Notes: generated from the letters alone by a model not told the origin. DNA of 15,553 bases from a virus (IMGVR_UViG_2585427776_000014), one strand, 5' to 3'. Positions 3,792 to 12,245 are shown, counted from the stretch's first letter. Made by a program: numbers and translations.

Positions 3792-4007
3792 ATGTCAAAT
3801 AAAATGACTGGTTTAGTAAAATGGTTTAACGCTGATAAAGGTTTCGGCTTTATTTCTCCTGTTGATGGTAGTAAAGATGTGTTTGTGCATTTTTCTGCGA
3901 TTCAGAATGATAATTATCGAACCTTATTTGAAGGTCAAAAGGTTACCTTCTCTATAGAGAGTGGTGCTAAAGGTCCTGCAGCAGCAAATGTCATCATTAC
4001 TGATTAA
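3792..4007 (+). CDS. cspB: Cold-shock protein CspB, 71 aa
   Basis: [38 protein letters not shown]... carries the canonical CspA-family RNP1 (KGFGFI) and RNP2 (VFVHF) motifs; a roughly 300-nt AT-rich upstream region precedes it. Confidence 0.95.
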
Positions 4008-4370: not shown

Positions 4371-4541
4371 TCAGGCTACAGCTTTAAGATTTGTCTGGAA
4401 TACTTTGTTGCAATGAGGGCAGATCAAAAGGGCACCTTTTTGTACTCTTGAAAAACTGTGTTCTGACTCTTGGGTGCAGTTTGGGCAGGAACATTTAACG
4501 AGATAATTACGGCGTGATTTTGAGTTTTTACGTTCTGACAT
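4371..4541 (-). CDS. ynfU: 56-aa zinc-ribbon small protein (two CxxC-type pairs)
   Basis: Minus-strand ORF; preferred start is the internal ATG giving MSERKNSKSRRNYLVKCSCPNCTQESEHSFSRVQKGALLICPHCNKVFQTNLKAVA, with AGGA about 9 nt upstream. The symbol ynfU is from memory of the K-12 small-protein catalogue and is uncertain. Confidence 0.55.
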   Translation of the reverse strand: MSERKNSKSRRNYLVKCSCPNCTQESEHSFSRVQKGALLICPHCNKVFQTNLKAVA

Positions 4542-4760
4542 AGGCTTTTCCTGTATAAATGGCCGTATACAGTACACTAAATATGAAAACATTTCTCGTA
4601 TTATTATTTTATATATGACTTTCTTTCAAAATAATTACCCACATTTTTAATGTGTATGTTTTTTTAGCGCCGTTGAGAACAACGTGTGCTGTCAAAACTA
4701 CCCCGTAGACTCCGATCTTTTCAAACATATTGCACCATCCGTGTACATCGGGGTGAGGAT

Positions 4761-4976
4761 ATGAAATCAATGGATAAGTTAACAACAGGTGTTGCCTATG
4801 GCACATCGGCGGGTAATGCTGGTTTCTGGGCATTGCAGTTACTCGATAAAGTAACTCCGTCACAGTGGGCTGCAATCGGTGTGCTGGGTAGCCTGGTTTT
4901 TGGCCTGCTGACGTATCTGACAAATCTTTATTTCAAGATTAAAGAAGACAGGCGTAAGGCTGCGAGAGGAGAGTAA
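4761..4976 (+). CDS. essQ: Pinholin (phage 21 S21-like class II holin), 71 aa, with dual-start motif
   Basis: [26 protein letters not shown]...[13 protein letters not shown]: Met1-Lys2-Ser3-Met4 dual start, two TM segments and a charged C-terminus. Closely resembles phage 21 S as I recall it. The track ORF 4686..4976 extends upstream of the likely start. Confidence 0.9.
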
Positions 4977-4980
4977 TCCA

Positions 4981-5288
4981 ATGACTCAAGACTATGAACT
5001 GGTTGTGAAAGGAGTCCGTAATTTTGAGAATAAAGTTACGGTAACTGTAGCCTTACAGGACAAAGAACGCTTTGACGGTGAAATTTTTGACCTGGATGTC
5101 GCCATGGACCGTGTTGAAGGAGCTGCGCTGGAGTTTTATGAGGCAGCAGCCAGAAGGAGCGTCCGGCAAGTCTTCCTGGAAGTAGCAGAAAAATTGTCAG
5201 AAAAAGTTGAGTCTTATCTGCAGCATCAGTACTCCTTTAAGATTGAAAATCCTGCCAATAAGCACGAGCGTCCTCATCATAAATATCT

Positions 5289-5292
<4 letters not shown>
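4981..5292 (+). CDS. ydfR: Prophage protein YdfR, 103 aa, function unknown, inserted between holin and endolysin
   Basis: Track ORF with AGGAGAG RBS at 4964-4970. Its stop overlaps the rrrQ start in an ATGA arrangement at 5289-5292. Confidence 0.85.
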
Positions 5293-6316
<1,024 letters not shown>

Positions 6317-6542
6317 GGTAATATTAAATCGGAACATTTACATCGCGGAATGTAAAATTTAAATAAAAAGGACTCTTCCATGAGCCAAAATTCCTGAAAT
6401 CTTAAGGGTAAGATAAAAGGTCTTAATCAGAATGACACGTTTTATTAATAAATAAAGCTATTCTTTCATTGCTGTGTTTTTCTTTACAAAAGTAATCCTT
6501 GCTATGGGTGGTTAATCATGCGTTAATGGTGTTCTGGTTTGT

Positions 6543-6575
6543 TACAAATTTATCTGAAGCAGTCATTGTTATAAT
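6543..6575 (+). promoter_or_regulatory. Candidate cspI promoter with extended -10
   Basis: TGTTATAAT at 6567-6575 (TGn plus TATAAT); the -35 is weak (TTACAA at 6543-6548, non-optimal spacing). About 100 nt upstream of the cspI ATG. Confidence 0.3.
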
Positions 6576-6678
6576 TTTATTATTTGTACCTCTTGAGATT
6601 TCCTTGTTGGTTTTTCTCTCTGATATTTTTTTTCGGACCATTCTGCCCAAGGGCTAATTTCTTCAAAAGGTAATAATT

Positions 6679-6891
6679 ATGTCTAACAAAATGACTGGTT
6701 TAGTGAAATGGTTTAACCCTGAAAAAGGTTTTGGTTTCATCACGCCGAAAGATGGCAGCAAAGATGTGTTTGTCCATTTCTCAGCAATTCAGAGCAACGA
6801 TTTCAAAACATTAACTGAGAATCAGGAAGTTGAATTTGGTATTGAGAACGGACCTAAAGGTCCTGCCGCTGTTCATGTAGTGGCGCTTTGA
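6679..6891 (+). CDS. cspI: Cold-shock protein CspI, 70 aa
   Basis: [38 protein letters not shown]... has canonical RNP1/RNP2 motifs; a long AT-rich upstream region precedes it. Confidence 0.95.
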
Positions 6892-7090
6892 GGTAGACAA
6901 TATTACAAACCATATTCACTTTAGATGCCCGTGTTGTCATGGTTCCCAGTATAGAACATCATCTTTTGATGTTTCTGACATGAATCCTTTCGGGGCAAAA
7001 TGTATCTTTTGTAAATCAATGATGATTACATTTGATAATATTTCACAATACTTAAATGCCAGCCGTCTGTCGTTGGATTTAAAAAAGTGA
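6881..7090 (+). pseudogene. Start-less zinc-ribbon ORF, paralog of the 4371-4541 protein, lying in the cspI 3' region
   Basis: Frame open 6881-7090 reads ...HFRCPCCHGSQYRTSSFDVSDMNPFGAKCIFCKSMMITFDNISQYLNASRLSLDLKK*. It shares the C-x-C-x1-2-C ... SF ... C-x2-C pattern with the 56-aa ORF. No ATG/GTG/TTG precedes the first Cys cluster; the only in-frame ATG (6980) would give 36 aa lacking the first Cys pair. Confidence 0.45.
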
Positions 7091-7096
7091 AAATGA

Positions 7097-7119
7097 AGGC
7101 TCCTTCGGGAGCTTTTTTG
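7097..7119 (+). terminator. Rho-independent terminator closing the cspI/zinc-ribbon transcript
   Basis: Stem GGCTCC (7098-7103)/GGAGCT (7108-7113) with loop TTCG, followed by TTTTT (7114-7118). Confidence 0.5.
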
Positions 7120-7237
7120 CTTGGTGTCTATTCGATGGATACTCACATACTACGGTAACATCATGAAAAAAATCATAGTTTTTTTTAACTCTGAACCAGC
7201 AGTGGTAGTGCCAGCGATGACTGGAGTTAACACCATC

Positions 7238-7393
7238 ATGCGTGAATATCCAAATGGCGAAAAAACACACCTTACTGTAATGGCCGCAGGGTTTCCATCT
7301 CTGACCGGAGATCATAAAGTCATTTATGTAGCCGCGGATCGACATGTTACTTCAGAAGAAATTCTGGAAGCAGCAATAAGGCTCTTGAGTTGA
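7238..7393 (+). CDS. ynfN: Small prophage protein YnfN, 51 aa (the same frame is open from an ATG at 7163, which would give 76 aa)
   Basis: In-frame ATG at 7238 gives MREYPNGEKTHLTVMAAGFP...AAIRLLS, 51 aa, matching my recollection of ynfN next to cspI. The start is uncertain. Confidence 0.6.
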   Translation: MREYPNGEKTHLTVMAAGFPSLTGDHKVIYVAADRHVTSEEILEAAIRLLS

Positions 7394-11670: not shown

Positions 11671-12245
11671 TGGCATTCAGAATGAGTGAACAACCACGGA
11701 CCATAAAAATTTATAATCTGCTGGCCGGAACTAATGAATTTATTGGTGAAGGTGATGCATATATTCCGCCTCATACAGGTCTGCCAGCAAACAGTACCGA
11801 TATTGCACCGCCAGATATTCCGGCTGGCTTCGTGGCTGTTTTCAACAGTGATGAGTCATCGTGGCATCTCGTTGAAGATCATCGGGGTAAAACGGTTTAT
11901 GACGTGGCTTCCGGCGACGCGTTATTTATTTCTGAACTCGGTCCGTTACCGGAAAATGTTACCTGGTTATCGCCGGAAGGGGAGTTTCAGAAGTGGAACG
12001 GCACAGCCTGGGTGAAGGATACGGAAGCAGAAAAACTGTTCCGGATCCGGGAGGCGGAAGAAACAAAAAACAACCTGATGCAGGTAGCCAGTGAGCATAT
12101 TGCGCCGCTTCAGGATGCTGCAGATCTGGAAATTGCAACGGAGGAAGAAATCTCGTTGCTGGAAGCATGGAAAAAGTATCGGGTATTGCTGAACCGTGTT
12201 GATACGTCAACTGCACAGGATATTGAATGGCCAGCACTACCGTAG
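11670..12245 (+). CDS. tfaQ: Tail fibre assembly protein (Tfa chaperone), 191 aa
   Basis: Track [51 protein letters not shown]...; Tfa-family N-terminus, position directly after stf. Confidence 0.9.

Follow-up and report, generated by a model that had tools for sequence, protein, structure and literature searches.

The analysed window, a 15,553-nucleotide stretch of viral DNA (IMGVR_UViG_2585427776_000014), is the late region of a Qin-type lambdoid prophage of Escherichia coli. Over 7 kb, it is 99.8% identical to the Qin prophage of K-12, with 13 mismatches and one indel, which identifies it as a close relative and not K-12 itself. The genes are arranged in the order cspB, ynfU, the lysis cassette essQ-ydfR-rrrQ-rzpQ, cspI, ynfQ, ynfR, ynfN and gnsB. 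The two cold-shock genes are cspB (3792-4007, plus strand) and cspI (6679-6891, plus strand, annotated), the latter encoding a protein of 70 amino acids and serving as the upstream cistron for the gene that is the main subject of this analysis. The same layout, that is, cspB, the lysis cassette and the cspI-ynfQ-ynfN-gnsB block, is also present in the isolated lambdoid phages Tritos and 2H10, and ynfQ matches were detected in mEp460_ev081, PhiR42_1 and HannyBb as well. Elsewhere in the window, positions 12013-12211 match the Rfam small-RNA family IS009 (220.9 bits), a feature unrelated to ynfQ.

The reading frame that follows cspI is a real, conserved and already annotated small-protein gene, ynfQ (6902-7090, plus strand), which consists of 62 codons and a TGA stop and encodes a small, Cys-rich protein of the YmcF-like family. 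This sequence is base-for-base the same as K-12 ynfQ (b4724; 1638256..1638444 in NC_000913.3), the first codon of which is ATT. In RefSeq/PGAP, the product is WP_071524604.1, described as 'cold shock small protein YmcF' or simply 'cold-shock protein', with either ynfQ or ymcF as the gene name. A megablast search found the ynfQ region at ≥95% identity in 2145 of the 5426 complete E. coli genomes, where an intact coding sequence is annotated. The protein matches the Pfam YmcF-like family PF23641 over its full length (residues 1-62 of 62; 111.8 bits against a cut-off of 27, E = 1.7e-32) and carries the core F-R-C-P-C-C-H-G-S-Q-Y-R ... N-P-x-G-A-K-C-I-F-C-K, with all invariant columns of a 36-sequence family alignment (A2) present. 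The initial annotation of this DNA had taken the frame to be unannotated, which is wrong in view of the RefSeq and NC_000913.3 entries; as stated there, the finding is a rediscovery of an annotated gene, and its novelty is nil. It does carry a caution, namely, that AUU-initiated genes escape start-codon-based ORF callers, and readers.

An ynfQ ortholog is present, unannotated, in the phage records LR595862.1/NC_049950.1 (2H10), LR597641.1 (mEp460_ev081), PV340562.1 and PV340573.1. The missing annotation in these deposited lambdoid phage genomes presumably reflects gene callers that do not accept ATT starts. The nomenclature is a further source of confusion. In the study of VanOrsdel et al. 2018 (PMC6001520), the name 'ynfQ' denotes another ORF, of 37 amino acids, located between ydfJ and ydfK (1632890-1633003; Table 1 of that paper). 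In the gene order given in the 2024 y-ome paper, 'ynfT' stands at the site of this 37-aa ORF, and ynfQ is placed between ynfR and rzpQ, so that the 'ynfQ' of VanOrsdel 2018 is apparently the gene now called ynfT. Because of this name collision, the ribosome-profiling and tagging evidence reported for 'YnfQ' in PMC6001520 does not apply to the cspI-adjacent ynfQ.

The frame is open from position 6881, right after an in-frame TAG (6878-6880), to the TGA at 7088-7090, and encodes 69 residues. Its sole canonical start codon is the ATG at 6980, which lies 3' of the first Cys cluster. The initial annotation was correct in stating that no canonical start (ATG, GTG or TTG) precedes this cluster, and its placement of the frame between the cspI stop and a terminator is borne out by a hairpin followed by U6 at 7098-7118. 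A good Shine-Dalgarno sequence, UGAGGU (6889-6894, plus strand), can be read directly; it overlaps the cspI stop codon TGA (6889-6891) and is separated by a 7-nt gap from the ATT (6902-6904, plus strand) that is the annotated start of the gene in RefSeq and of K-12 b4724. The gap between the cspI stop and this ATT is 10 nt.

We scanned one genome per species for orthologs and obtained 80 loci from Escherichia, Salmonella, Citrobacter, Klebsiella, Raoultella, Enterobacter, Kosakonia, Scandinavium and other genera. The codon homologous to 6902-6904 is ATT in 54 of the 80 loci, ATC in 4 and ATG in 22. In all 48 loci with an intact csp gene, the csp stop is located 9-10 nt upstream of this codon and is embedded in the Shine-Dalgarno sequence; the T[AG]AGG motif is invariant in 20 of 20 aligned csp-coupled orthologs and visible in all coupled loci. 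Many lineages have an upstream in-frame stop just 3-7 codons before the start codon, with no canonical start in between. Given that a quarter of the relatives have ATG at this position, that the Shine-Dalgarno sequence lies at a fixed distance, and that there is no alternative upstream start, the comparative evidence indicates that the AUU at 6902 is the initiation codon of ynfQ. Among the options listed in the initial annotation, non-canonical initiation is the one that stands, at a codon conserved as ATT, ATC or ATG in the 80 loci. The literature searched contained no link of ymcF or ynfQ to an AUU start.

The K-12 paralog ymcF (b4723) is organized in the same way behind cspG: TAAGGT overlaps the csp stop and is followed, after a 10-nt gap from the stop to the start codon, by an ATT-started gene of 62 codons, with a hairpin and a T-run just 3' of the ymcF stop. 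The ATT start, the T[AG]AGG Shine-Dalgarno sequence overlapping the csp stop, the 10-nt gap and the terminator hairpin are thus common to the two genes, and the two 62-aa proteins, both members of PF23641, have 42 of the 62 residues in common. The C-terminal 15 residues diverge, and the genomic settings differ, ymcF being a chromosomal gene (cspH-cspG-ymcF-ymcE-gnsA), whereas ynfQ is prophage-borne, within the cspI-ynfQ-ynfR-ynfN-gnsB module. The coding sequences of ynfQ and ymcF differ at 62 nucleotides, distributed 17/9/36 over codon positions 1, 2 and 3, with pS of 0.84 (saturated) and pN of 0.20; in the two alternative frames, dN/dS exceeds 1 and stops are present. None of the 80 sampled loci has a disrupted frame. 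The initial annotation had proposed comparing the frame across strains and measuring the selection that acts on it, and both comparisons came out on the side of a coding sequence: E. coli alleles that are about 4% divergent retain the ATT and the frame, although the internal Met (the ATG at 6980) is replaced by Arg, and the pS and pN values against ymcF show that YnfQ is under strong purifying selection. The YmcF-like family is small and restricted to Enterobacterales. The csp-ymcF loci on three contigs labelled otherwise (L006, Veillonella parvula MAG; L058, Mucilaginibacter MAG; L083, Chryseobacterium sp.) are nearly identical to those of E. coli or Scandinavium, and contamination of the bins or assemblies is the probable cause.

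Several readings other than a translated gene with an AUU start have to be considered. The lack of ATG, GTG or TTG before the first Cys cluster and the location of ynfQ in a cryptic prophage would be compatible with a zinc-ribbon gene that has lost its start codon and is decaying into a pseudogene. However, the frame is intact in 80 of 80 loci across Enterobacteriaceae with the Cys, His and Gly positions invariant, synonymous sites are saturated at a pN of 0.20, the ATT is conserved, with ATG taking its place in other loci, an intact coding sequence is annotated at ≥95% identity in the 2145 genomes mentioned above, and the gene is also found on intact lambdoid phages. Decay, which the initial annotation had left as an option, is excluded by this purifying selection, and we assign it a negligible probability. 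The same annotation had considered read-through from cspI. If the peptide were a C-terminal extension of CspI, produced by stop-codon read-through or by frameshifting, this would fit the overlap of the frame with the end of cspI, the frame opening 8 nt before the cspI stop codon; but with ynfQ in the +1 frame with respect to cspI, read-through cannot join the two, and no slippery site is conserved. Moreover, the open stretch upstream of the start is only 3-7 codons long in many lineages, and in Enterobacter, Klebsiella and Raoultella, the homologous codon of orthologs that lack a csp gene is an ATG start. The existence of these stand-alone genes, along with the frame relationship, eliminates read-through, and an extension of CspI of either kind is extremely improbable.

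It is equally hard to credit translation from the internal ATG at 6980, even if this is the sole canonical start in the frame. The product would be a 36-aa peptide with the second Cys pair only, but YmcF and other E. coli alleles of ynfQ have Arg in place of this Met, the position varies elsewhere, and the N-terminal 26 residues that such a peptide would lack are the most conserved part of YnfQ. The last of these readings, also raised in the initial annotation, is that the conservation reflects an RNA element in the cspI 3'UTR and not a protein. The window sequence on its own folds the Shine-Dalgarno sequence and the AUU into a hairpin (approximately 6885-6928), and the match to the Rfam cspA model includes the 27 nt that follow the cspI stop. 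Nevertheless, RNAalifold predicts no conserved pairing over the Shine-Dalgarno sequence, the start codon or the 5' part of the coding region in 20 orthologs, substitutions cluster at the third position of codons, and a single frame is open, so that an RNA element in place of a protein is excluded for practical purposes and ranks as vanishingly improbable. A conserved structure sequestering the Shine-Dalgarno sequence and the AUU was also considered and rejected, being confined to the window's own fold and absent from the 20-ortholog prediction. We therefore hold with high confidence that positions 6902-7090 are the genuine protein-coding gene ynfQ, which starts at AUU and is presumably the second cistron of the cspI mRNA, with the AUU probably used mainly via cspI-translating ribosomes, and with a product that is probably a metal-binding zinc ribbon.

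The cspI mRNA leader and coding region (6533-6918, plus strand) score 112.8 bits (gathering threshold 78, E = 1.1e-28) with the Rfam cspA thermoregulator model RF01766; the aligned region takes in the ynfQ Shine-Dalgarno sequence and start, ending 27 nt beyond the cspI stop. In published RNA-seq data, the fold values of cspI (6.5/4.3/38), ynfQ (5.9/4.0/42) and ynfN (5.8/9.9/51) are near-identical responses (PMC11228462), and ynfQ is labelled 'cold shock induced' in the same work. By this arrangement, ynfQ would be the second cistron of a cold-shock cspI mRNA with a cspA-type thermosensor leader, and, being on that mRNA, YnfQ would be expected to rise with cspI in the cold.

The hairpin that follows the gene resembles an intrinsic terminator (GGCUCC-UUCG-GGAGCU followed by U6; 7098-7118, plus strand), with a 6-bp stem, a dG of -14.5 kcal/mol and a z of -2.5. 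Separated from the ynfQ stop by 7 nt, it falls within ynfR (7093-7158, plus strand), an annotated small ORF of 21 amino acids, codons 2-9 of which encode the hairpin. SPA-tagged YnfR rises strongly after cold shock (PMC6001520); because the ORF overlaps the hairpin, transcription must pass the hairpin at least partly. The ynfR ORF is poorly conserved, given that the approximately 4% divergent E. coli alleles contain a premature stop at codon 13, with the PGAP flag 'too short'. Farther downstream in the cspI-ynfQ module, ynfN (7163-7393, plus strand; 76 amino acids, annotated) is intact in the window. The T-run at 7172-7179 contains one T more than the corresponding run in K-12 MG1655, which yields the intact 76-aa ORF; K-12 ynfN is frameshifted and appears in annotations either as a 51-aa protein or a pseudogene. 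The terminator hairpin follows the stop codon by just 5-7 nt in both ynfQ (7088-7118) and ymcF (2371-2400 in locus L003). A ribosome positioned at either of these stop codons would cover the 5' arm of the hairpin and might suppress termination, resulting in read-through into ynfR-ynfN-gnsB or ymcE-gnsA, respectively.

At the protein level, YnfQ contains two putative metal-binding knuckles, C9-P-C11-C12-H13 (6926-6940, plus strand) and C34-I-F-C37 (7001-7012, plus strand), with the cysteines and the histidine invariant or nearly so in alignment A2. The family alignment includes 20 invariant columns, among them C9, P10, C12, G14, S15, Q16, R18, N28, P29, G31, A32, K33 and C37; C11, H13 and C34 are nearly invariant. 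The AlphaFold2 model of YnfQ computed with this alignment, of moderate confidence (pLDDT 74.7), consists of two beta-hairpin knuckles with short strands and a C-terminal helix. Its best structural neighbours are zinc ribbons, TFIIE-alpha among them, and the zinc-ribbon and rubredoxin-like mini-domains, for instance the TFIIE-alpha zinc finger (PDB 1vd4), are among the closest known systems. On the basis of this model, YnfQ is probably a metal-binding zinc ribbon. As to its function, the most likely guess is that this small protein binds Zn and has RNA, the ribosome or another protein as its partner, working side by side with the Csp RNA chaperones in cold adaptation. YmcF and YnfQ are of interest in this respect as proteins co-expressed with the major RNA chaperones. 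The string CPCCHGSQY (6926-6952) resembles the Rieske box II, CPCHGSxY, with a conserved extra Cys11 and His13. We considered and rejected a Rieske [2Fe-2S] protein: only the box II-like string is present, without the box I C-x-H-x-G-C, and the matches in PDB and NCBIfam, to cytochrome b6f Rieske subunits, are non-significant (E 0.06-1).

The second small Cys-rich protein of the window, YnfU, is encoded on the minus strand (4371-4541; b4776). This annotated gene encodes a 56-aa zinc-binding protein with a CPxC...CPxC pattern that belongs to Pfam PF23499 and NCBIfam NF038384, that is, to a family other than that of YnfQ; the start codon and ribosome-binding site ascribed to it in the initial annotation are indeed there (ATG and AGGAAAA). 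Ribosome profiling with stalled initiation led to the discovery of the gene, for which two CPxC zinc knuckles were pointed out (Weaver et al., bioRxiv 10.1101/511675). The headline claim of the initial annotation, that the frame after cspI is a paralog mirroring this zinc-ribbon ORF near cspB, fails in every comparison that we made. The two proteins produced no BLASTP alignment at E ≤ 100. The Smith-Waterman score of 25 compares with 23.0 ± 4.5 for 5000 shuffles (p = 0.31), so that the similarity is no better than that of shuffled controls, the outcome that the initial annotation had named as refuting its claim. In an hhalign comparison, the 36-sequence YmcF-like alignment and a 23-sequence YnfU alignment matched over 8 columns, corresponding to one knuckle, with a probability of 4%. 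From 1.84 billion representatives, an exhaustive HMM search retrieved only 42 YmcF-like proteins with no YnfU among them, and YnfQ has no match to PF23499 or NF038384. With all these searches negative and with different Pfam families assigned, homology between YnfQ and YnfU is rejected.

The two proteins nonetheless resemble each other in being small, Enterobacteriaceae-restricted, equipped with two CxxC-type knuckles and encoded beside csp genes, and both show weak, sub-threshold matches to NF047912. They differ in the knuckle motifs (CPNC...CPHC in YnfU, CPCCH...CIFC in YnfQ), and, unlike ynfQ, ynfU has a canonical ATG with its own ribosome-binding site, lies on the other strand and has no coupling to a csp cistron. 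In at least 14 of the 80 loci, from several genera, a gene of the YnfU family in divergent orientation precedes the csp-ymcF-like module by 0.5-0.9 kb, and so the two small Cys-rich proteins travel together with csp genes, without being homologous. Such YnfU-family genes are found, all on the minus strand, at 616-783 in L027, 699-866 in L033, 836-1006 in L065, and approximately 795-946 in L044 and L055. Apart from the missing lysis cassette (window positions of approximately 4610-6486), of which L033 retains a 56-nt rzpQ remnant, the window and the Citrobacter loci L027 and L033 are colinear.

The identity of the start codon covaries with the state of the upstream csp gene. Every one of the 48 loci in which an intact csp stop lies 9-10 nt upstream has an AUU or AUC start, and AUG is found in none (0/48). 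Conversely, all 22 ATG starts occur where csp is pseudogenised or deleted, and these loci fall into three separate clades of the neighbour-joining tree. The csp gene is riddled with frameshifts in Klebsiella and Raoultella, and in Citrobacter sedlakii it is degenerate and fused in frame; in Enterobacter, Leclercia and Silvania, the csp coding region is deleted with a csp-type leader retained. All these lineages have ATG starts. Upstream of the csp-less Enterobacter gene, there was no Rfam match, but direct alignment did show the csp-type leader. A naive Fisher test of start codon against csp gives p = 2e-12. Since ATG was gained independently about three times, however, the association is suggestive rather than proven. 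The confinement of loci with intact csp to AUU or AUC, and of ATG to loci where csp was lost, suggests translational coupling between the two cistrons.

Ten csp-less loci, from Pseudescherichia, Atlantibacter and one Citrobacter (C. freundii), keep ATT. In Atlantibacter, the ATT is directly followed by ATG as the second codon, and in the csp-less ATT loci of Pseudescherichia and C. freundii, a short ATG-started uORF ends beside or across the ATT, although such uORFs also occur by chance. A systematic search for short uORFs ending near the start in csp-less lineages was abandoned as too noisy, given that chance uORFs turn up in the ATG-started lineages, too.

A precedent for such a start is infC, the gene for IF3. 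The AUU/AUC start of infC is discriminated by IF3, the fidelity of which is reported to be temperature-sensitive, and infC, like ynfQ with its 'cold shock induced' label, is cold-stress inducible (PMC5499595). As in infC, the ynfQ start in csp-coupled lineages is kept as AUU or AUC and is never a canonical triplet. The infC AUU, however, serves IF3 autoregulation, whereas a regulatory role of the ynfQ AUU is hypothetical; in further contrast to infC, the ynfQ AUU sits 10 nt past an upstream stop codon and gives way to ATG when the upstream cistron is lost. In the coupling scenario, the AUU, which is weak and subject to discrimination by IF3, probably depends for the most part on ribosomes arriving from termination at the cspI stop (termination-reinitiation). 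Proofreading by IF3 might be relaxed at low temperature, which would also aid the use of AUU. Coupling of this type would tie the output of YnfQ to the synthesis of CspI. Because mRNAs with an AUU start are less active at low temperature in vitro (PMC5499595), a simple model under which AUU works better in the cold is not favoured.

We entertain, tentatively and at somewhat less than even probability, the idea that an IF3-discriminated AUU or AUC is actively kept behind an intact csp, and replaced by AUG once csp decays, as a functional gate open to csp-terminating ribosomes and, perhaps, to cold-relaxed IF3. The alternative is that the AUU-started gene is real but that its start has no role in coupling or temperature response: a weak start would simply keep YnfQ far below the abundant CspI, and the ATG in csp-less lineages would be incidental. 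The small number of independent ATG gains, about three, the ten csp-less loci that keep ATT and the poorer performance of AUU mRNAs in the cold in vitro (PMC5499595) are all in line with this interpretation. Against it stand the complete absence of ATG from the csp-coupled loci (0/48), even though synonymous sites are saturated and ATT can turn into ATG by a single change, and the fixed 9-10 nt spacing with the Shine-Dalgarno sequence overlapping the stop. On balance, we find the absence of any coupling or temperature role rather unlikely. If the gate is real, YmcF and YnfQ would represent a second natural, conserved use of AUU in enterobacteria besides infC. The literature searched included no description of an AUU/AUC-csp gate, and the covariation of the start codon with csp may be a modest but new observation. 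Be that as it may, the pattern of AUU or AUC behind csp offers a cheap, testable natural experiment on the retention of non-canonical starts and on translational coupling in the cold-shock response.

In Enterobacter and Silvania (1250-1500 in L078, 1250-1500 in L067 and 2600-3000 in L089), a csp-type promoter and leader with the elements CATGCGTTAATG..GGTTTGAA..AAAGCAGTTCTCA are located directly before the YmcF-like gene. In these three loci, the csp coding region is gone, and the YmcF-like gene has a strong AGGAG Shine-Dalgarno sequence and an ATG start. In the Enterobacter locus L089, the gene adjoins the genes for the cytochrome bd-II oxidase.
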